From sequence record MT968995.1: DNA of 64,000 nt. One strand, 5' to 3'. Both the position numbers and the translations under genes were made by a program. Every line of letters starts with the position of its first letter. The stretch's first letter is position 1. Below the pieces are notes generated by a model, which saw nothing but the letters and a program-made list of their open reading frames with translations, searched no databases and was not told the DNA's origin. Source of the stretch: Escherichia phage vB_EcoM_WL-3. This document shows, piece after piece, positions 2,250 through 64,000 of this stretch.

Positions 2250-3450
2250 ATTTTGTAATAATGTCAAATTGTTCTTTAAAGCAGAAGCTTGAATCTTGAT
2301 GCTGATACAAAAATTCATAAGCTTTTTCGCGTTCGCGGTCATAAAGAGCTCGGTCAGATGACAGTTCTTTAATACGTTCAAATGTTGATTCCATGTCATT
2401 TTCATCAAACCAAACGATACCGCTATCATGAGAAATTAATGGAGTATTATCAACACGGAATTTTAAATTTTCGCCCGTAGATTTCCAAAATACTGGAATT
2501 GTTCCGCATGCACCAAGCTCGAGATGAGTATATTCTAAAGAACGTTGTAGATATTTTTTATCTAATTTACTCAGCTGATAACCAAATCCGGATTTACTCA
2601 TACGTTCAAGCATTTCGCTATTTACATAACGGTCAAGAATTTGCGTTGGCAAATTAGGAGCAATTTTAATTTGGTCTACTTGATGAAGACGATAATACTC
2701 GTATGGAATTCCTTTTTCTTTAATAGGAATGAATGCTGGAGAACGTTCCAGACCTTCCATAATAGTACTTAGTCCTGCAGGTTTAAGATGTTTTTCGTGA
2801 AAATCAAACATCTGGTAAAAACCTTTCCATGTAGTCGTACGACCAATCCAACGGTTGATATTCATGTTAATTTCAGAAACATCTTTCCAGTAGGTTGATC
2901 GAACCTTCGCAATATCCATAGGAGGCTGAAAGTTATATACGGTCGGTGCTTCTTCAATATCATCAAACAAAGAAACAGTTTCCGGATACCATTCTTTCAT
3001 TAAAACTTTATTAAAATCGCCATTATCAGAATGACTAAAAATAACATCAGCTCGACGAACAGTTTCTTCTAATCCCAAATTTCGGCGTAAAGAAAGAGAA
3101 GAATGGTCATGCTGATAAACTACAACACGAACCGAAGGTTTAATATTATCAATAATTTTTTTATAGTTATTAATTGTGTCTTCTTCGACTGAAGTAGCAG
3201 GAACTGAATTGATAATTAGAATATCACAATCATTTACCAGCTTAAGTGTTTTATCGTATTCTTTTGCCAATAAAACCGGAATTGAAAATGATTTATAATC
3301 ATGCGCGCAATTACGAGTAAATGATTTATCTTTAGCATAAACCAAAGTTACTTCATGACCATTTTTAATAAACCAATCACGTTGCTCAAGAGAAAATTTA
3401 GTTACACCGCAACCTTCAAGACCTCGAGCCATAAAAATACATACTTTCAT
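2248..3450 (-). CDS. a-gt: DNA alpha-glucosyltransferase
   Basis: 400 aa; N-terminus MKVCIFMARGLEGCGVTKFSLEQRDWFIKNGHEVTLVYAKDKSF matches recalled T4 AGT. Confidence 0.93.
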   Translation of the reverse strand: MKVCIFMARGLEGCGVTKFSLEQRDWFIKNGHEVTLVYAKDKSFTRNCAHDYKSFSIPVLLAKEYDKTLKLVNDCDILIINSVPATSVEEDTINNYKKIIDNIKPSVRVVVYQHDHSSLSLRRNLGLEETVRRADVIFSHSDNGDFNKVLMKEWYPETVSLFDDIEEAPTVYNFQPPMDIAKVRSTYWKDVSEINMNINRWIGRTTTWKGFYQMFDFHEKHLKPAGLSTIMEGLERSPAFIPIKEKGIPYEYYRLHQVDQIKIAPNLPTQILDRYVNSEMLERMSKSGFGYQLSKLDKKYLQRSLEYTHLELGACGTIPVFWKSTGENLKFRVDNTPLISHDSGIVWFDENDMESTFERIKELSSDRALYDREREKAYEFLYQHQDSSFCFKEQFDIITK

Positions 3451-3500
3451 TTAATATCCTCATTGTTTTGGTTTATTTTACCAAAAATTTATAAAGCAAT

Positions 3501-3520
3501 ATAGGAGCCGAGGCTCCTAT
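3501..3520 (-). terminator. GC hairpin ATAGGAGCC-GA-GGCTCCTAT
   Basis: Inverted repeat overlapping stop of small ORF 3517-3690. Confidence 0.4.
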
Positions 3521-3690
3521 CCACATAATACACCATACAGAGGCTCATTAGAGCTTCTAAATTTTATGCGCTTATACGTTATAGTTCCTTCTGCTTTAGC
3601 TTTATCATGAGACTCTTTAAAACGTCTCATCATTTCTACTTTAGAGGAACGAATTTTATTATAATCTATTTCAGAAGTCTGGGTGTTCAT
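3517..3690 (-). CDS. Hypothetical small protein (57 aa, below ORF-track cutoff)
   Basis: Hand translation MNTQTSEIDYNKIRSSKVEMMRRFKESHDKAKAEGTITYKRIKFRSSNEPLYGVLCG; ATG next to upstream stop; followed by hairpin. Confidence 0.35.
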   Translation of the reverse strand: MNTQTSEIDYNKIRSSKVEMMRRFKESHDKAKAEGTITYKRIKFRSSNEPLYGVLCG

Positions 3691-19155: not shown

Positions 19156-20202
19156 TCATTTATAATAACTTCGGTGGTTTTCAAGATAAACCTGTTCGAG
19201 GAAATTATTCCAAAAGCTCATATCTACTGTTTTAGGCATACCATTCTTAGAAGCTTCAGTAGATGCTGCTTCTACTTGATCGACCACATCTTCCAAAAAC
19301 TCTTGAACTGTTTTAAATGGATGTTTACCCAACTTCACGTCGAGAATAAATGGAGCATCTTGGAGTGGATAAACCAAGTCACCAGTTTTGTAAATTTCCA
19401 ATAGTTGAAGTCCACCACGACAAGCATGACTCAGAGCTTTCCAGTCAATACCTTCATTGGCTTCGGCCTTACGAGCACGTTCACCATATTCAGCATCTAA
19501 TTTGTTCAGTGACTGCTTAAGCTCAATAAGAGAAAGCGTTGTCTGATATTTACGACCCAACACTGTGTAGAACGTTTGTGGACCTGTTTTCTCATGATTA
19601 TGGAACACCCATTCACAGAATTCGTTTTCTGGAAGACGATGCTTAATATCTTCAACTTTAGTGCGACGCTGCTTAATAGAACCATCTTCTTGGTAATCAA
19701 CCCATTGCTCAGGGATTTGATTAACTACTTTCAATACATCACGTAATGCAGCCAAACGAGAACCCTTGACACCGTATTTAGAAGCTTGCTTGCGGACATA
19801 TCCTAAATATGATTTCATGTTAGTCGTATAAAAACGAGAACGGTTGTCTTGAATAAACTTCCACACATCAGGCAAATCAGATTTAACCACTAGTTCAGGT
19901 GGAGTGTGAAGCATATCCAACGCTACAGTTTCACCATCTGCCGCTAATTTAAAGAAATACTTAAGACTGTATAGTTCATGGTCAATATCATCTTTAGTGT
20001 TTTTAGATGATGTGTTGTTAGTGTTTTTACTCATATGCTCTTTAACATTTCCGATAAGAATATCACGAGCAGGAGGAACAAAGATTTCTTTAAAATCTAC
20101 ATCAGATTCTGGAGTAGAAGTTCCATAAAGATGACTACCAAAATAAGACTTAACTACAGTTTTCATTATTAGACCTTTCATAATCTTCATTAAATTGTAC
20201 AA
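19156..20202 (-). CDS. Putative nucleotidyltransferase (pol-beta superfamily motif GS-x10-DVD)
   Basis: 348 aa; motif YFGSHLYGTSTPESDVDFKEIF near N-terminus. Confidence 0.65.
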   Translation of the reverse strand: MYNLMKIMKGLIMKTVVKSYFGSHLYGTSTPESDVDFKEIFVPPARDILIGNVKEHMSKNTNNTSSKNTKDDIDHELYSLKYFFKLAADGETVALDMLHTPPELVVKSDLPDVWKFIQDNRSRFYTTNMKSYLGYVRKQASKYGVKGSRLAALRDVLKVVNQIPEQWVDYQEDGSIKQRRTKVEDIKHRLPENEFCEWVFHNHEKTGPQTFYTVLGRKYQTTLSLIELKQSLNKLDAEYGERARKAEANEGIDWKALSHACRGGLQLLEIYKTGDLVYPLQDAPFILDVKLGKHPFKTVQEFLEDVVDQVEAASTEASKNGMPKTVDMSFWNNFLEQVYLENHRSYYK

Positions 20203-20241
20203 TCAATCGATGATAATTAGATTTTGGATATCCTAATTTAC

Positions 20242-20931
20242 TTATATAAGTTCCGAATGAGACCCACGTTTAGGTCTATTTAATTTAATCCATAACTTAT
20301 AAAGTAAGTCATAGTCTTGCCAATGTTTACCAGTTCTTTGTCTAATTTTAGATGAATTTGATTGTTTCTTTTTAGTTTCAAAATTATTCAAAGATTTTTT
20401 GACTGCAGCAGAGTGTTTTTCTTTAACTCCCGGTCGTTTAAAAGCAGCTTTCACCCCTTTAGATATTTTTTCTTTAACTTCCGGTTTGTTTTGTGCTTCT
20501 AACTGGGATTCTGAAATTTTAGCCCTTATTTCAGGAAGACTTAATGTTATCGAACGTTTTTCTCTGTATTCATTAGACTTCCACATTTCTTTCATTGTAT
20601 TAGAATGTATTTTTGAAAATTTTTCTCTAACTAACTGATATCCTCTTGAAGTTAATTTGAGATTTCTTCCTAAAGAATCTTCTCCAAAATTATAAAATGA
20701 CCACCATGCATAAATTAATCCAGGCGAATTATAATGAATTTTAGCTAAAAGCCAATGGGCTATAAAATGCTCTCTAGCTGTTAATAAAACTAGATTATCA
20801 GAATCATCATTACCACCAATACAAGATGGAATAATATGATGCTTTTCCGTATAAAAATTTAATTTAGATTTATCTAATTTTCTGAGTTTTCCTTTCTTAA
20901 TTAAATTATTATATACTTTAGTATAATTCAT
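20242..20931 (-). CDS. mobD: Free-standing HNH homing endonuclease (mobD-like), a mobile element gene
   Basis: 229 aa; HNH motif EKHHIIPSCIGGNDDSDNLVLLTAREHFIAHW; basic C-terminal DNA-binding region; same location as T4 mobD. Confidence 0.75.
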   Translation of the reverse strand: MNYTKVYNNLIKKGKLRKLDKSKLNFYTEKHHIIPSCIGGNDDSDNLVLLTAREHFIAHWLLAKIHYNSPGLIYAWWSFYNFGEDSLGRNLKLTSRGYQLVREKFSKIHSNTMKEMWKSNEYREKRSITLSLPEIRAKISESQLEAQNKPEVKEKISKGVKAAFKRPGVKEKHSAAVKKSLNNFETKKKQSNSSKIRQRTGKHWQDYDLLYKLWIKLNRPKRGSHSELI

Positions 20932-21005
20932 TGGTTCTTCGTCTCATTTAATTTTGCTTTGCATTTATAACACATGTCTGTTCCACTTGAAATAAACATA
21001 TTTCC

Positions 21006-21563
21006 TCACTTTGAAATCATAGTTGGAATGACAGAATCAAGATAAGTCTTTAGCGCAATAGCTTCGTCTTTGGTAAATGTGACAATATGTGATCGAAAAT
21101 CATCAATTTGACGAATAGTTAAGACATCTCCCTCTTCATAACATTTTGATACATTTAAAAGAGTTTCATCATTCTGATTGCAATCGTTAGTAATAATAGC
21201 ATTGCAATTTTTAAACCATTTTAAACCATGTTTTCTTTCGTTAGAATAATAAAAATATTTAATTTTAGTTATAAAATTATCCCAATTATTAATTGATAAG
21301 CATATTGACTCGCTTTCAATGTTAAATCCTGGGCATGAAGAATAAAAATGAATTTTGTGCTCATCATTGATGCTTACTATTTTATCAGTATAAGGATATT
21401 CAATTTGGGTTAAATGAATGATTTCACTAGGCGTAAAATATAGCATATCGTCTTCTTGCGTCAAACGATACATATTATTTACTTTTTCTATAGCCAATTC
21501 GCCAAAAAGTGGACTAACTTCTAATACTAATCGTTTCATATTGATTCTCTTCGACTCACTCAC
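21006..21563 (-). CDS. Hypothetical protein
   Basis: 185 aa; GTG start with AAAGGAG SD (or ATG 21539). Confidence 0.55.
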   Translation of the reverse strand: MSESKRINMKRLVLEVSPLFGELAIEKVNNMYRLTQEDDMLYFTPSEIIHLTQIEYPYTDKIVSINDEHKIHFYSSCPGFNIESESICLSINNWDNFITKIKYFYYSNERKHGLKWFKNCNAIITNDCNQNDETLLNVSKCYEEGDVLTIRQIDDFRSHIVTFTKDEAIALKTYLDSVIPTMISK

Positions 21564-21565
21564 AA

Positions 21566-21670
21566 TTACATACTCCTTTGAATAATATCAATAATGTTGT
21601 TCACCAGATTATAAGTAAACATCGGATGATAATATTGAATCATCACATACACAACAAACAAAACTTTCAT
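21566..21670 (-). CDS. Hypothetical hydrophobic micro-protein (34 aa)
   Basis: Hand translation MKVLFVVYVMIQYYHPMFTYNLVNNIIDIIQRSM; GAGGAG SD; just downstream of an early promoter. Confidence 0.3.
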   Translation of the reverse strand: MKVLFVVYVMIQYYHPMFTYNLVNNIIDIIQRSM

Positions 21671-21695
21671 TCTCTTCTCCTCGGCAGATGGCAAG

Positions 21696-21731
21696 ATTAC
21701 TATACCATAACCTTGCCAACTTGTAAACCAT
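21696..21731 (-). promoter_or_regulatory. T4-type early promoter (-35 GTTTACA, -10 TATAGT)
   Basis: Minus-strand GTTTAC (21723-21728 rc), TATAGT (21699-21704 rc), 18-nt spacer. Confidence 0.45.
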
Positions 21732-21904
21732 TAAATGACGTTTTCAATAAAATTCTGAAGCTTTGTGTGAGCATCAACCATGATTTTCATTTCTTCCTTT
21801 GCGAAAGCTGTACCTCTTTCACGAGAAGAATACTCATAGTCAGAAACTGCATTAGCGTATTCTTCAATTAGCTTCATTAAAAACATCTGCTTTTCAGTTT
21901 TCAT
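21731..21904 (-). CDS. Hypothetical small protein (57 aa, below track cutoff)
   Basis: Hand translation MKTEKQMFLMKLIEEYANAVSDYEYSSRERGTAFAKEEMKIMVDAHTKLQNFIENVI; the plus-strand track ORF 21578-21871 is antisense to it. Confidence 0.35.
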   Translation of the reverse strand: MKTEKQMFLMKLIEEYANAVSDYEYSSRERGTAFAKEEMKIMVDAHTKLQNFIENVI

Positions 21905-22088
21905 TATTCCACCTAATCATTTCAAGATATTGAACTAACTTAGCTTTGGATTTATCCAAATCCTTTTTAGCTGCTTCTATACCATCGTATGAATATCCTT
22001 CACAATGCTCAACTGCCAATTGGTATGAATCTATTTCAATATCACGTGCTAATTTAATGATTTTTTCAAACTGTTCACGTGTTAGCAT
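21894..22088 (-). CDS. Hypothetical small protein
   Basis: ORF track 64 aa. Confidence 0.5.
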   Translation of the reverse strand: MLTREQFEKIIKLARDIEIDSYQLAVEHCEGYSYDGIEAAKKDLDKSKAKLVQYLEMIRWNNEN

Positions 22089-22090
22089 AC

Positions 22091-22294
22091 TTAAACTCTC
22101 GTATTATGATCGATAATTTCATCAAGAAACATATCTAAAGCTTCTACAGCATTATCAACTTTAGCTTCAAGTTCTTCAGCGCCTTTATTTGCAATGCCTG
22201 CCGAAAACCAAGCAAAGTCACTAAGTTCCTCATCTGCTTTGCGAATTAAAGCTACCAATTCTTTAATTTTATCTGCTTGTTCGATACTAATCAT
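22091..22294 (-). CDS. Hypothetical small acidic protein
   Basis: Track ORF trimmed to ATG overlapping the upstream stop (ATGA). Confidence 0.5.
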   Translation of the reverse strand: MISIEQADKIKELVALIRKADEELSDFAWFSAGIANKGAEELEAKVDNAVEALDMFLDEIIDHNTRV

Positions 22295-22482
22295 TATTCC
22301 ACCACATATGAAAGAGAGAATATTGCACACGCCATATGAGTTGCAGCTTCATCACACATATCATAACGTTTCTTAAGAAGTTCTACAAGTTCTTCACTTG
22401 TAACTTCATCCATGTCGACGAAAAAATCACCATTAATGATGACGTAAATATTTCCTTCTTGATTAAGTGCTTCAATTTTCAT
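22294..22482 (-). CDS. Hypothetical small protein
   Basis: Start moved to ATG 22482 with GAGGAG SD; early promoter upstream. Confidence 0.5.
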
Positions 22483-22543: not shown

Positions 22544-22556
22544 TAAAATGAAAAAA

Positions 22557-22572
22557 GTCTCCCGAAGGAGAC
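22557..22572 (-). terminator. GC hairpin GTCTCC-CGAA-GGAGAC
   Basis: Stem-loop after the stop of ORF 22578-22964. Confidence 0.4.
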
Positions 22573-22577
22573 TAATG

Positions 22578-34767: not shown

Positions 34768-34779
34768 AATTCTTAATTT

Positions 34780-34854
34780 GGTGGCCCTGGGTGGAATTGA
34801 ACCACCATCTGGCGATTATGAGTCGCTTGCTTGAACCTTCCAGCTACAGGGCCA
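34780..34854 (-). tRNA. tRNA with anticodon CAU (Met or lysidine-type Ile)
   Basis: Acceptor GGCCCTG/CAGGGCC; anticodon loop CTCATAA; TTCAATT T-loop; encoded CCA. Confidence 0.65.
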
Positions 34855-34861
34855 AATTTTC

Positions 34862-35347
34862 TTATTTTATGTAATATTTATTTAAAAACTTTCTAGCTTG
34901 AGTATGGCTAACATTTATAGCATTTGCATAATTTTTAATAAAACCTCGTTCATCCATATTAAAACTTTCTAATATTTTTAATCGTCTAGCTATCTCATCT
35001 TGACTTAAAGTACTTGCATTATTTTTAGAAATTTTTTCTAAGGACTGTACTGAGTGTTTTCGACCATTAAAATTAAAATTTTTAGATTTTGGAGGAAATC
35101 TATCATTTAGTCTCGCATCTTTTGTATTTTGATTATTAGTTGCGCAATATATGTTATTTAATGAGTATGGTCCTTTATCACCAAAACGGCACATACAGTA
35201 TTCATGACCCTTTCTTCCACGCTTATCATAATTTCCCGTTGATTTCCACCAATGCAACCACTCATCAAAAGTTAAATTCCATTCAATGTTTCTACGTATA
35301 GCAGAATTCCGCTGAGAAATATATTTTGCATAATCTTCTTTCATCAC
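34862..35347 (-). CDS. Cys/His-rich ORF in the tRNA gap; candidate mobile nuclease-like gene
   Basis: 161 aa; A/T-rich; motif NLTFDEWLHWW...GHEYCMCRFGDKGPYSLNNIYC; occupies the slot where T4 carries segB. Confidence 0.55.
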   Translation of the reverse strand: MMKEDYAKYISQRNSAIRRNIEWNLTFDEWLHWWKSTGNYDKRGRKGHEYCMCRFGDKGPYSLNNIYCATNNQNTKDARLNDRFPPKSKNFNFNGRKHSVQSLEKISKNNASTLSQDEIARRLKILESFNMDERGFIKNYANAINVSHTQARKFLNKYYIK

Positions 35348-35391: not shown

Positions 35392-35481
35392 TGGCGGAGG
35401 CGATAGGATTTGAACCTATGAGTCGCCGGAGCGACTGCCGGTTTTCAAGACCGGTGCATTAAACCACTCTGCCACGCCTCC
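35392..35481 (-). tRNA. tRNA-Ser (anticodon UGA), long variable arm
   Basis: Anticodon arm CCGGT-CTTGAAA-ACCGG; TTCAAAT T-loop; encoded CCA. Confidence 0.8.
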
Positions 35482-61457: not shown

Positions 61458-63437
61458 ATGACTTTATTATCTCCGGGCATTGAGCTCAAAGAAACTACGG
61501 TTCAAAGCACCGTGGTTAATAACTCTACTGGTACAGCAGCTTTGGCCGGTAAATTCCAGTGGGGTCCTGCTTTTCAGATTAAACAGGTTACAAACGAAGT
61601 AGATTTAGTTAATACTTTTGGTCAACCTACAGCTGAAACTGCTGACTATTTTATGTCTGCAATGAATTTCTTACAATATGGAAATGATTTGCGAGTTGTG
61701 CGCGCTGTCGATAGAGATACCGCTAAAAACTCATCTCCGATTGCTGGTAATATTGAATACACAATTTCTACCCCAGGTAGTAACTACGCGGTTGGAGATA
61801 AAATCACGGTCAAATATGTTTCAGAAGATGTTGAAACAGAAGGTAAAATTACCGAAGTAGATGCTGATGGAAAAATTAAGAAAATTAATATTCCTACTGC
61901 AAAAATTATTGCTAAAGCTAAAGAAGTTGGCGAATACCCAACATTAGGTTCTAACTGGACTGCAGAAATTTCTTCATCTTCTTCCGGTTTAGCTGCAGTA
62001 ATAACTCTTGGAAAAATTATTACTGATTCCGGTATTTTATTAGCTGAAATCGAGAGCGCTGAAACTGCTATGACAGCAGTTGATTTTCAGGCAAATCTTG
62101 AAAAATATGGAATTCCAGGAGTAGTAGCTCTCTATCCAGGCGAATTAGGCGATAAAATTGAAATTGAAATCGTATCTAAAGCTGACTATGCGAAAGGCGC
62201 TTCTGCATTACTGCCAATTTATCCAGGTGGTGGTACTCGTGCATCTACTGCCAAGGCAGTATTTGGATATGGGCCGCAGACTGACTCACAGTACGCTATT
62301 ATAGTTCGTCGTAATGATGCTATTGTTCAAAGTATTGTTCTTTCAACTAAGCGTGGTGAAAAAGATATTTACGATAGTAACATCTATATTGATGACTTTT
62401 TCGCAAAAGGTGGTTCAGAATATATTTTCGCAACTGCGCAAAACTGGCCAGAAGGCTTCTCTGGAATTTTAACTCTGTCTGGTGGATTATCATCAAATGC
62501 TGAAGTAACAGCAGGAGATTTGATGGAAGCTTGGGACTTCTTTGCTGACCGCGAATCTGTTGACGTTCAGTTGTTTATTGCGGGTTCTTGTGCCGGTGAA
62601 TCTCTTGAAACAGCATCTACTGTCCAAAAACATGTTGTTTCAATTGGTGATGCTCGTCAAGATTGCTTAGTATTGTGCTCACCTCCGCGTGAAACTGTAG
62701 TTGGAATTCCTGTAACTCGTGCAGTAGATAATTTAGTTAACTGGAGAACTGCAGCAGGTTCATACACTGATAATAACTTTAATATCAGTTCAACCTACGC
62801 AGCAATTGATGGTAACTACAAATATCAGTATGACAAATATAATGATGTGAATCGTTGGGTTCCATTAGCAGCTGATATTGCTGGTTTATGCGCAAGAACT
62901 GATAACGTATCTCAGACTTGGATGTCTCCAGCTGGTTATAATCGTGGCCAGATTCTTAACGTTATTAAACTTGCTATTGAAACTCGCCAAGCTCAGCGCG
63001 ACCGTTTATACCAAGAAGCTATTAATCCAGTAACTGGTACAGGTGGCGATGGTTACGTATTGTATGGTGATAAAACAGCTACTTCTGTTCCTTCTCCATT
63101 TGATCGTATTAACGTTCGTCGTCTGTTTAATATGTTGAAAACGAATATCGGACGTAGTTCAAAATATCGTTTGTTCGAATTAAACAACGCGTTTACTCGT
63201 TCATCATTCCGCACAGAAACTGCCCAATACTTACAGGGAATTAAAGCTCTCGGTGGAATTTATGAATATCGTGTAGTTTGCGATACAACAAATAACACTC
63301 CGTCAGTAATTGATAGAAATGAGTTTGTTGCAACATTCTACATTCAACCGGCTCGTAGTATAAATTATATCCAACTTAATTTCGTCGCAACTGCTACTGG
63401 TGCAGATTTCGATGAGTTAACTGGTCTTGCAGGTTAA
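61458..63437 (+). CDS. 18: Tail sheath protein gp18
   Basis: 659 aa. Confidence 0.95.
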   Translation: MTLLSPGIELKETTVQSTVVNNSTGTAALAGKFQWGPAFQIKQVTNEVDLVNTFGQPTAETADYFMSAMNFLQYGNDLRVVRAVDRDTAKNSSPIAGNIEYTISTPGSNYAVGDKITVKYVSEDVETEGKITEVDADGKIKKINIPTAKIIAKAKEVGEYPTLGSNWTAEISSSSSGLAAVITLGKIITDSGILLAEIESAETAMTAVDFQANLEKYGIPGVVALYPGELGDKIEIEIVSKADYAKGASALLPIYPGGGTRASTAKAVFGYGPQTDSQYAIIVRRNDAIVQSIVLSTKRGEKDIYDSNIYIDDFFAKGGSEYIFATAQNWPEGFSGILTLSGGLSSNAEVTAGDLMEAWDFFADRESVDVQLFIAGSCAGESLETASTVQKHVVSIGDARQDCLVLCSPPRETVVGIPVTRAVDNLVNWRTAAGSYTDNNFNISSTYAAIDGNYKYQYDKYNDVNRWVPLAADIAGLCARTDNVSQTWMSPAGYNRGQILNVIKLAIETRQAQRDRLYQEAINPVTGTGGDGYVLYGDKTATSVPSPFDRINVRRLFNMLKTNIGRSSKYRLFELNNAFTRSSFRTETAQYLQGIKALGGIYEYRVVCDTTNNTPSVIDRNEFVATFYIQPARSINYIQLNFVATATGADFDELTGLAG

Positions 63438-63476: not shown

Positions 63477-64000
63477 GTGATTATTTCTAAGTTTGTTACA
63501 ATAAAACCAAGAAATCATTCAAAAATGTGGTCGACAATTCTGGGATATAAAGTATCATATCATGATACAATATCTGTTCCAATAGAATTAATGCCAAAGA
63601 ATAGTAATAAAATAGTTGACGCTAAATGTGATTTGTGTGGTATTAAATTTAGTAGAAGCATTCAGCTTTTAAATAGAACACCCACACATGCATGTAGAAA
63701 ATGTAGCATTAAACAAGTTGCTATTAAAAATTCGGAAGTTCAATCTGGAATAAGCAGACCATGGCAAAGAGGCGATAAACATCCTCGATGGACTGGTAAA
63801 AGAAAAGAGTTTGCATTATATGCTAGTAGAGTTCATTCTATAACTAAGTCAGCTAAAATAAGAAAAATTTGGTCAAAATGGCCGAATGCTGATAAAATAG
63901 GAGTGTGCGGCGTAGAAGGTGCTTACCAACTTGATCACAAGGTATCTATCAAATATGGATTTGATAATTTAATTCCGCCGGAAATTATAGCAAGCGTAAA
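63477..64000 (+). CDS. Free-standing HNH homing endonuclease, partial (runs off window end); mobile element gene where T4 has gene 19
   Basis: Hand-translated frame from GTG 63477 (GAGGAA SD) or ATG 63525; zinc-finger CDLCGIKFSRS...CRKCS; HNH-like core GVEGAYQLDHKVSIKYGFDNLIPPEIIAS; no stop before window end. Confidence 0.65.
   Translation, partial: MIISKFVTIKPRNHSKMWSTILGYKVSYHDTISVPIELMPKNSNKIVDAKCDLCGIKFSRSIQLLNRTPTHACRKCSIKQVAIKNSEVQSGISRPWQRGDKHPRWTGKRKEFALYASRVHSITKSAKIRKIWSKWPNADKIGVCGVEGAYQLDHKVSIKYGFDNLIPPEIIASV

Follow-up and report, generated by a model that had tools for sequence, protein, structure and literature searches.

The mobD locus of Escherichia phage vB_EcoM_WL-3 carries a frameshifted copy of a predicted homing-type HNH endonuclease gene

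The mobD gene of Escherichia phage vB_EcoM_WL-3, which encodes a predicted free-standing HNH endonuclease, is interrupted near its 3' end by a frameshift. In the window, by which we mean the whole 64,000-nt stretch of sequence record MT968995.1 that was analyzed, positions 20242-21904 (minus strand) comprise mobD, mobD.1, mobD.2 and mobD.2a. By comparison with phage T4, this region is the already-known T4-type mobD locus, and its sole unusual point is a 2-nt insertion that cuts off the conserved tail of the nuclease. Our overall explanation, a T4-like mobD locus with a homing-type HNH gene that is present as a frameshifted copy next to ordinary host genes, holds with a probability of about 0.8.

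Results

The region corresponds to the T4-type mobD locus

The window represents a Tequatrovirus (T4-like) genome, and all four ORFs of the region were found on the minus strand at the positions given by the initial annotation. Each of them matches a protein family and is therefore not a chance ORF, and each corresponds to an annotated gene of phage T4, with nrdC.11 and mobD.3 flanking the cluster. The two small ORFs, initially presented as hand-found, turned out to be annotated T4 genes with protein families of their own. T4 annotations have included mobD and its neighbors for decades, and the presence of free-standing HNH endonucleases in T-even phages is textbook knowledge. When the insertion boundaries were compared with those of T4 mobD, as the initial annotation had proposed, we found the same gene in the same slot (nrdC.11/mobD.1), in the same orientation and with the same neighbors (mobD.1, mobD.2, mobD.2a and mobD.3-5), whereas the flanking genes of WL-3 are nearer to those of RB14 than to those of T4. 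This agrees with the listing of mobD as a free-standing HNH gene with nrdC.11/mobD.1 as its insertion site (PMC2988022, Table 1).

The product of mobD.1 (21006-21563, minus strand; 185 aa from a GTG, or 177 aa from an ATG at 21539) is a y05I-like putative transcription factor with matches to the Pfam families T4_y05I_N/C (PF24449, PF24448; E = 2e-41 and 8e-21) and to phrog_1502 (E = 1e-80). mobD.2 (21566-21670, minus strand) encodes 34 aa with a hydrophobic N-terminus, has an AAGGAG Shine-Dalgarno sequence before its start and matches phrog_3515 (E = 2e-20). mobD.2a (21731-21904, minus strand; 57 aa) matches DUF7438 (E = 2e-16) and phrog_2758 (E = 2e-35), and is the first of three tandem DUF7438 paralogs, followed by mobD.3 and mobD.4. 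All three belong to the regular, conserved early gene set of the host phage and lie outside the mobile element. Downstream of mobD, nrdC.11 (19156-20166, minus strand) encodes an RlaP-type nucleotidyltransferase (PF10127, E = 2e-11) of 336 aa from an ATG at 20166. In the output of several annotation pipelines, the small mobD.x genes wrongly bear the label [quoted passage not shown].

mobD encodes a predicted HNH endonuclease

The mobD-like HNH gene recognized in the initial annotation is mobD itself, with 99.9% DNA identity to T4 mobD (protein NP_049710). Over 780 nt, the two differ by one substitution (20731) and one 2-nt insertion, and at least 99% identity was found to 46 records. The ORF of the frameshifted allele (20242-20931, minus strand; 229 aa) contains HHIIPSCIGGNDDSDNLVLLTAREH and comprises T4 MobD residues 1-224 followed by five out-of-frame residues (HSELI). 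Its product matches phrog_655, annotated as "homing endonuclease" (E = 7e-55).

The HNH core of MobD lies at approximately residues 27-65. The initial annotation would have been refuted if the protein lacked catalytic HNH residues on alignment; this is not the case, as H31, H32, N46, H55 and H59 are all intact and nearly invariant among 120 homologs. In the pattern HH-x13-N-x8-H-x3-H, residues 25-60 can be aligned position by position to the HNH motifs of two solved proteins, EcoKMcrA (6ghc) and the maturase of a group II intron (6me0). Both proteins are among the best fold matches, whereas the remainder of MobD is unrelated to them. The AlphaFold model (mean pLDDT 87) places strands at 28-32 and 47-51, followed by a helix at 52-65 with pLDDT above 93 (beta-beta-alpha). 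The best Foldseek matches were HNH domains (Cas8-HNH, McrA and Cas9 HNH), which are weak, with a probability of up to 0.91 and about 50-60 residues aligned. The fold search of the PDB gave no match at E<=0.001. Across the PDB sequence and fold searches, the HNH core was the sole part of MobD to match, again weakly, and I-HmuI was not recovered. Against the Pfam HNH family (PF01844), MobD scored 18.4 bits, below the gathering cutoff of 21.4, and full-length T4 MobD was likewise subthreshold, because the CxxC...CxxC zinc site flanking the motif in the Pfam model is missing from MobD. Several MobD homologs have a precomputed PF01844 match.

NUMOD3 (PF07460) did not match MobD even at E<=10; it is precomputed in many of the homologs, and the MobD linker shows KxKIS-like repeats by eye. 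The predicted helical middle of MobD may correspond to the type of region in which homologs carry NUMOD3 repeats. mobD is a predicted free-standing HNH (His-Me finger) endonuclease gene, and the model points to a nuclease core of the beta-beta-alpha type at the N-terminus, then a long helical stretch and finally, at the C-terminus, a small conserved module of three helices.

T4 MobE and MobA resemble MobD in that an N-terminal HNH domain is fused to a distinct C-terminal region, in that their genes lie between conserved genes and are co-transcribed with their neighbors, and in their sporadic presence among T-even phages (PMC2988022). mobE also shows DNA similarity to mobD across the HNH core. 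MobA and MobE differ from MobD in their insertion sites and C-terminal regions as well as in their experimental activity: both have been found to nick their targets and to be inherited in excess when infections are mixed, whereas no activity has been reported for MobD, whose activity is listed as "ND" and whose target is listed as "unknown" (PMC2988022).

The initial annotation had counted up to three free-standing endonuclease-like genes in the 64 kb. This number was not confirmed: in a search of the whole window for further Mob-type genes, phmmer, a MobD-family profile of 120 homologs and GIY-YIG/HNH regular expressions all found mobD alone. The two other candidates, the ORF in the tRNA gap and the ORF after gene 18, belong to PHROG families of unknown function, with no Pfam nuclease match.

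A 2-nt insertion removes the C-terminal module of MobD

Although the 229-aa ORF had at first been taken at face value, mobD of WL-3 is interrupted. A duplicated TC at 20259-20260 (on the minus strand, GGGTCTCATTC here vs. GGGTCATTC in T4) shifts the frame at codon 225, resulting in 229 aa instead of the 259 aa of T4 MobD. The insertion is absent from all 46 mobD-carrying records, in each of which 89 nt are aligned to 91 nt of the query. Instead of an uninterrupted 259-codon ORF ending inside nrdC.11, we found a mobD ORF that stops at 20242, which is 76 nt short of the nrdC.11 ATG, and WL-3 has lost both the C-terminal 35 residues and the T4-type 17-nt overlap with nrdC.11. In the T4 frame, the stranded 3' end of mobD (20150-20257, minus strand; FGTYISKLGYPKSNYHRLIVQFNEDYERSNNENCS, followed by the stop codon) has become separated from the ORF; with its final 17 nt it overlaps the beginning of nrdC.11.

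The C-terminal helices of the AlphaFold model lie at 203-217, 225-231 and 239-256, in a module with moderate pLDDT (57-77). As the frame shifts at codon 225, the last two of these helices are lost. The module is conserved among homologs down to about 35% identity, and it matches no family in Pfam (E<=10) or NCBIfam. In modular phage homing endonucleases, the target is bound by the C-terminal module. A review terms this module "presumably the DNA-binding domain" (PMC2988022). That of MobD is presumably DNA-binding as well, which is a guess.

Independently broken mobD copies were found in Pu-Krd-SF3 and Dhakavirus E33. The exact 229-aa product of WL-3 has no record in public assemblies; in IMG/VR, exact-pattern scans detected no mutant junction but no wild-type junction either and are hence uninformative. 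Programmed frameshifting as a means of restoring the T4 frame was considered and rejected, since inspection of the sequence from the insertion to the stop showed no slippery heptamer (X XXY YYZ) and the ORF is uninterrupted in 46 of 46 relatives.

mobD occupies a cassette that replaces ORF096c and ORF097c

Comparison with mobD-less phages placed the junctions of the mobD-specific cassette at 20143 and 20980 (minus strand; 838 nt, G+C content 28% vs. 35%). Between nrdC.11 and mobD.1 of RB14, RB32 and most Tequatrovirus genomes, precisely this interval is filled by RB32ORF096c and RB32ORF097c, the proteins of which are unrelated to MobD, and the RB14 record states that ORF096c "replaces mobD". 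ORF097c is a mobD.1 paralog (T4_y05I_N/C), and the Pfam matches of ORF096c, to membrane-protein families, are weak and subthreshold. The cassette has replaced ORF097c from codon 7 onward plus all of ORF096c, and mobD-carrying phages keep just the first 19 nt of ORF097c. At the other end, it carries its own version of the first 8 codons of nrdC.11, which belong to the mobD-type sequence, together with the ribosome-binding region; codons 3-8 differ from those of mobD-less phages, and homology picks up again at about 20142. Co-conversion tracts within the 964-nt stretch that is identical to T4 (20066-21029) were considered and withdrawn, as RB14, which lacks mobD, shows the same identity across the short flanks (20066-20142 and 20981-21029).

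mobD was present in 46 of the 635 matching records, the remainder of which hold ORF096c/097c or further slot variants. Among nine mobD-carrying phages, nucleotide diversity (pi) was 0.001 in the cassette vs. 0.047 and 0.077 in the flanking genes, an approximately 50-fold lower diversity; at the divergence of the flanks, the probability of at most one substitution in 838 nt is at most 3e-11. Further, mobD.1 of WL-3 is 95.2% identical to that of mobD-less RB14 and 91.6% identical to that of T4, while mobD itself is 99.9% identical to T4. WL-3 mobD sits in an RB14-like background, with a history that differs from that of the flanking genes. In these comparisons, mobD shows both the sporadic presence at a fixed site and the signs of lateral spread expected of a free-standing homing endonuclease gene.

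Predicted expression signals of mobD

We detected an unannotated leader ORF of 23 codons (20928-20999, minus strand; MFISSGTDMCYKCKAKLNETKNQ, followed by TGA), which is invariant in the nine mobD-carrying phages. Alignment with mobD-less phages showed that it uses the Shine-Dalgarno sequence, ATG and first 6 codons left from ORF097c. Its TGA overlaps the ATG of mobD (ATGA), which suggests that the leader is translationally coupled to mobD.

By motif scan, a candidate late-like promoter core, TATAAATG, was found at 20962-20969 (minus strand). It ends 30 nt upstream of the mobD ATG and matches 7 of 8 positions of TATAAATA, the consensus of the T4 late-promoter core. This was the only such signal upstream of mobD, where no MotA-box (middle) promoter was found. 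A predicted early-type promoter lies between mobD.2a and mobD.2 (21699-21727, minus strand; GTTTACA, 17 nt, TATAGT, and a TG ahead of the -10 element). Reading from 21727 to 21699, this sigma-70/T4-early-type site (TTTACA/TATAGT) agrees with 10 of 12 consensus positions plus the TG. It is conserved in seven phages, and the hexamers are invariant in T4T, RB14, RB3, e11/2, pSe_SNUABM_01 and KFS-EC3. Promoter-like matches in the region are no more numerous than in shuffled sequence (12 found vs. 13.8 expected), so support for the promoter comes from site quality and conservation and not from the count. The early promoter initially proposed for both micro-ORFs exists as a conserved site from which the 34-aa ORF can be transcribed; the 57-aa ORF (mobD.2a) lies upstream of it and is out of its reach. 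By its position, the predicted promoter is limited to mobD.2 and what follows (mobD.1, mobD and nrdC.11). An Rfam search of the region found nothing.

Discussion

The frameshifted mobD of WL-3 most likely represents an endonuclease gene that was acquired recently and has only just become disabled. This would mark the start of the cycle of decay that homing endonuclease genes usually undergo. We tentatively propose a more specific history, to which we give somewhat less than even odds: MobD has homing endonuclease activity, or had it until recently, and invaded the ORF096c/097c allele; the insertion left the 23-codon leader derived from ORF097c, which would now drive mobD translation by coupling; and the WL-3 copy would lie within a few mutations of the invasion, just after its first inactivating lesion. 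By analogy with MobE and MobA, MobD would nick or cut, during mixed infection, the genome of a relative carrying ORF096c and ORF097c in the slot, and recombinational repair would then copy the 838-nt mobD cassette into the cut genome. Transcription of mobD may start from the early promoter upstream of mobD.2 or from the late-like TATAAATG, and its translation may be coupled to the leader.

The insertion could also be an assembly or sequencing artifact, the real mobD being intact, T4-identical, 259 aa long and overlapping nrdC.11 by 17 nt. We regard this as unlikely but worth keeping in view: the rest of mobD differs from T4 by a single substitution in 780 nt, the insertion is known from a single assembly and from none of the 46 other records, and public assemblies hold no record of the exact 229-aa product. 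However, a clean duplication of a TC dinucleotide in non-homopolymer sequence is not a typical platform error, and the different lesions that break other natural mobD copies indicate that decay of mobD is common. If the frameshift is real, it might still be of little consequence, with the 229-aa protein a working nuclease whose C-terminal 35 residues are dispensable or merely tune specificity. The protein indeed keeps the HNH core together with the entire helical region modeled at high confidence (residues 1-200, pLDDT above 90), and many family members have different or shorter C-termini. We nevertheless consider a working 229-aa nuclease improbable, given that the lost segment is conserved in the closest full-length homologs, down to about 35% identity, that the C-terminal module confers target binding in modular phage homing endonucleases, and that translation stops 76 nt short of the nrdC.11 ATG, whereas the two genes overlap in T4.

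Little credence is likewise given to the idea that mobD never was, or no longer is, a homing gene, so that a domesticated or inert HNH gene would owe its low diversity to homologous recombination of the ordinary sort, by which a single haplotype spreads through co-infecting T-even phages, rather than to conversion driven by an endonuclease. The immediate flanks, identical in phages with and without mobD, would offer ready homology arms for such passive recombination, cleavage activity and target of MobD are unreported (PMC2988022), and the nrdC.11-mobD.3 segment is deletable in T4 (PMC9825161). Yet passive recombination alone does not account for a drop in diversity of about 50-fold that is confined to the cassette, and mobD is sporadic, low in G+C and far less diverse than its flanks. 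Additionally, it retains the catalytic residues and the modular HNH/helical-linker architecture of active relatives, and the paralogous MobE and MobA are active (PMC2988022).

As the locus is known, the discovery value of these results is small, and their modest value is practical. Annotation pipelines would miscall WL-3 mobD as an intact 229-aa endonuclease. The exact cassette boundaries and the alternative allele (ORF096c and ORF097c) are now defined and indicate which DNA to offer MobD in a target search. The frameshifted allele, together with the other broken copies, documents the natural decay of mobD. If the proposed invasion of the ORF096c/097c allele is true, the comparative data would be the first, indirect, evidence of homing activity for the uncharacterized MobD.

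Locus identity and gene content

To place the mobD locus, we compared 2.6 kb around it with public sequences, which matched 526 phage records, nearly all from Tequatrovirus and other T-even-like phages with Escherichia, Shigella, Salmonella and Yersinia as hosts. Identity over this region reached 98.2% among the matches and was 94.4% to T4. On the minus strand, the genes follow the T4 order (nrdC.10, nrdC.11, mobD, mobD.1, mobD.2, mobD.2a, mobD.3, mobD.4, mobD.5, rI.-1, rI, rI.1, tk).

The four ORFs reported for 20242-21904 in the initial annotation lie exactly where it placed them, all on the minus strand: mobD (229-aa ORF, 20242-20931, containing HHIIPSCIGGNDDSDNLVLLTAREH), mobD.1 (185 aa, 21006-21563; Pfam T4_y05I_N, E = 2e-41, and T4_y05I_C, E = 8e-21), mobD.2 (34 aa, 21566-21670; phrog_3515, E = 2e-20) and mobD.2a (57 aa, 21731-21904). 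Since all four are annotated T4 genes, the two micro-ORFs described as hand-found (mobD.2 and mobD.2a) are real but not new. We conclude that the locus, already known, was recognized correctly, with some details wrong.

DUF7438 is common to mobD.2a (E = 2e-16), mobD.3 (E = 2e-17) and mobD.4 (E = 7e-16), three small tandem paralogues without assigned function (21731-22300, minus strand). The annotated length of mobD.2a is 38 aa in the T4 reference NC_000866 (2750-2866 of the retrieved segment) and 57 aa in T4T (3415-3588 of its segment), and the vB_EcoM_WL-3 gene agrees with the T4T form. Several RefSeq/GenBank records name mobD.1, mobD.3, mobD.4 or mobD.5 [quoted passage not shown], which looks like an annotation error originating from the shared gene name.

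MobD is an HNH protein

The assignment of MobD as an HNH protein holds on alignment, with the catalytic residues kept. H31, H32, N46, H55 and H59 are all found, vary little or not at all among 120 homologues and match the HNH motifs of EcoKMcrA and of one group II intron maturase position for position. The Pfam HNH score (18.4 bits) stays below the gathering cut-off of 21.4 bits, likely because MobD lacks the flanking CxxC zinc site. MobD matches PHROG family 655 "homing endonuclease" (E = 7e-55), and many of its 1640 homologues carry precomputed NUMOD3, HNH or NUMOD1 domains. The AlphaFold model of full-length T4-type MobD (mean pLDDT 87) has two strands (28-32 and 47-51), then a helix (52-65), a long helical region and three C-terminal helices of lower confidence. 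Its best Foldseek matches in the PDB are HNH domains, none with E ≤ 0.001. MobA-E have been grouped with PF01844-type HNH proteins in the His-Me finger classification (PMC5714182).

A frameshift truncates this mobD copy

Alignment with T4 mobD over 780 nt shows two differences, a substitution at 20731 and 2 nt inserted at 20259-20260 (minus strand, GGGTCTCATTC versus GGGTCATTC in T4). The reading frame shifts at codon 225 and stops at 20242, resulting in 229 instead of the 259 aa of T4; the initial ORF call thus recognized the gene and overlooked the frameshift. The stranded 3' piece (20150-20257) still encodes FGTYISKLGYPKSNYHRLIVQFNEDYERSNNENCS up to the stop codon in the T4 frame. The lost residues are part of a module (W..YD.LY.LW...P....F.....GYP..NY...I..F) whose conservation extends to full-length homologues with as little as about 35% identity, and the lost segment comprises the helices predicted at 225-231 and 239-256 in the AlphaFold model.

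The insertion may be an assembly error. It was absent from all 46 mobD-carrying records in which we looked for it, and the public gene collection does not contain the exact 229-aa product, which makes the lesion private to the vB_EcoM_WL-3 genome. Broken mobD copies do occur in other phages. In Pu-Krd-SF3, an additional T lengthens a T-run in mobD, and the annotation splits the gene into two fragments. The Dhakavirus phage vB_EcoM-E33, of a different genus, carries a homologue that is 78% identical at the DNA level and occupies the same slot, upstream of the phage's nrdC.11 homologue (2422-3186 of the retrieved segment); since its sole annotation is a 142-aa fragment, this copy has probably decayed too.

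mobD replaced another gene pair and shows signs of mobility

Among the 635 records matching positions 19500-21900, 46 carry mobD. In most mobD-less records (e.g., RB14, ZN18 and e11/2), the slot between nrdC.11 and mobD.1 holds two other ORFs: RB32ORF096c (153 aa), noted in the RB14 record as "replaces mobD", and RB32ORF097c (173 aa; 1731-2252 of the RB14 segment). The latter is a mobD.1 paralogue (T4_y05I_N/C, E = 4e-33 and 7e-23), so that mobD-less phages have two tandem y05I-like genes and carriers one. On the upstream side, homology between both arrangements covers the mobD.1 stop codon as well as the Shine-Dalgarno sequence and start codon of ORF097c, and breaks 19 nt into that gene, at 20981/20980; mobD has thus taken the place of an ORF097c/096c pair that was there before. 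Downstream, the two arrangements begin nrdC.11 with different types of sequence (codons 1-8, ACTGTAGTTAAGTCT versus ACAGTAATGAAAAGC), and homology resumes at about 20142. The two breaks thus delimit a cassette of 838 nt (20143-20980), with a G+C content of 28% versus 35% for the window, from which the ribosome-binding region of nrdC.11 also comes.

Nucleotide diversity among nine mobD-carrying phages was 0.001 in the cassette, compared to 0.047 in distal nrdC.11 and 0.077 in mobD.1; at the divergence of the flanks, the probability of no more than one substitution in 838 nt lies between 3e-11 and 2e-29. The mobD.1 gene of vB_EcoM_WL-3 is closer to mobD-less RB14 than to T4 (95.2% vs. 91.6% identity), as is nrdC.11 (98.0% vs. 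96.7%), whereas mobD is 99.9% identical to that of T4. Therefore, the common ancestor of the cassette is much younger than that of its surroundings. Such a young cassette in differing backgrounds is what lateral spread predicts. Stretches of 77 nt and 49 nt adjoining the cassette were rejected as co-conversion tracts, since they are identical in T4 and RB14 alike and thus simply conserved.

Expression signals

Both hexamers of the top promoter-like site of the region (TTTACA, 17 nt, TATAGT, with an upstream TG; 21727->21699, minus strand) are invariant in seven phages, and so is an AAGGAG Shine-Dalgarno sequence located 8 nt upstream of the mobD.2 start codon. Its position downstream of mobD.2a allows the promoter-like site to serve mobD.2, mobD.1, mobD and nrdC.11, whereas mobD.2a itself is out of its reach; of the two micro-ORFs for which an early promoter was proposed, only mobD.2 can thus use it. 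Between rI.-1 and mobD.5 there is a strong terminator-like hairpin (22556-22573; on the minus strand, AGTCTCCTTCGGGAGACT and then a T-run), which corresponds in relative position to a terminator annotated in phage G2540-3 and would part the mobD.5-to-nrdC.11 transcription unit from the upstream genes.

A 23-codon ORF at 20999-20928 (MFISSGTDMCYKCKAKLNETKNQ, then stop) begins with what is left of the ORF097c start; it is invariant in nine mobD-carrying phages, and its TGA overlaps the mobD ATG (ATGA). Given this overlap and the lack of a good Shine-Dalgarno sequence for mobD itself, translation of mobD may be coupled to this leader, which we consider a reasonable idea. In a review, mobD is absent from the list of endonuclease genes with a recognizable translation-initiation region (PMC2988022). 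A motif scan also found a late-promoter-like TATAAATG within the leader (20969-20962).

Other endonuclease-like genes in the window

Up to three endonuclease-like genes had been suggested for the 64 kb, which our scans do not confirm: across the whole window, a MobD-family profile and motif scans find mobD alone, with neither a second Mob-type HNH gene nor any GIY-YIG match. The 161-aa ORF at 34862-35347 (minus strand; phrog_16521, function unassigned) sits between tRNA clusters (tRNA-Met 34779-34853, tRNA-Ser 35392-35481), in the region where T4 has segB. It had no Pfam match; a NUMOD3-like stretch is visible by eye (GRKHSVQSLEKISKNN), with no nuclease motif confirmed. The ORF directly after gene 18 (tail sheath, 61458-63437) starts at 63528 on the plus strand and is cut by the window end at 64000; its full form in phage VEc20 has 201 aa. 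Besides phrog_5104 (function unassigned), it has a weak homing-endonuclease PHROG match (E = 1.2e-3) and only sub-threshold treble-clef zinc-finger matches, and it is not demonstrably HNH. Both ORFs occur sporadically among relatives (25 records for the tRNA-gap ORF, 113 for the one after gene 18), which is consistent with mobile genes but is not evidence that they encode nucleases. Judged over the window, vB_EcoM_WL-3 therefore looks poor in homing-endonuclease genes compared to T4, whose equivalent stretch holds several Mob and Seg genes.

Proposed role of MobD

In a review of mobile elements in T4, mobD appears as a free-standing HNH gene inserted between nrdC.11 and mobD.1, its activity given as "ND" and its target as "unknown"; for MobA and MobE, the same review states that they nick their targets and are inherited in excess when infections are mixed (PMC2988022). 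The nrdC.11-mobD.3 segment can be deleted from T4 (PMC9825161). The literature searched contained no account of MobD activity. Going beyond the directly observed identity, architecture and distribution of mobD, its replacement boundaries and the diversity contrast, we propose by analogy with MobE and MobA that MobD would nick or cut the ORF096c/097c allele, that its C-terminal module would bind DNA, and that repair would copy the cassette into the ORF096c/097c genome. The vB_EcoM_WL-3 gene would then be a recently acquired copy that has only just taken a disabling hit. The frameshift, the leader ORF and the limits of the cassette add small details to a known locus and would aid the search for the MobD target.
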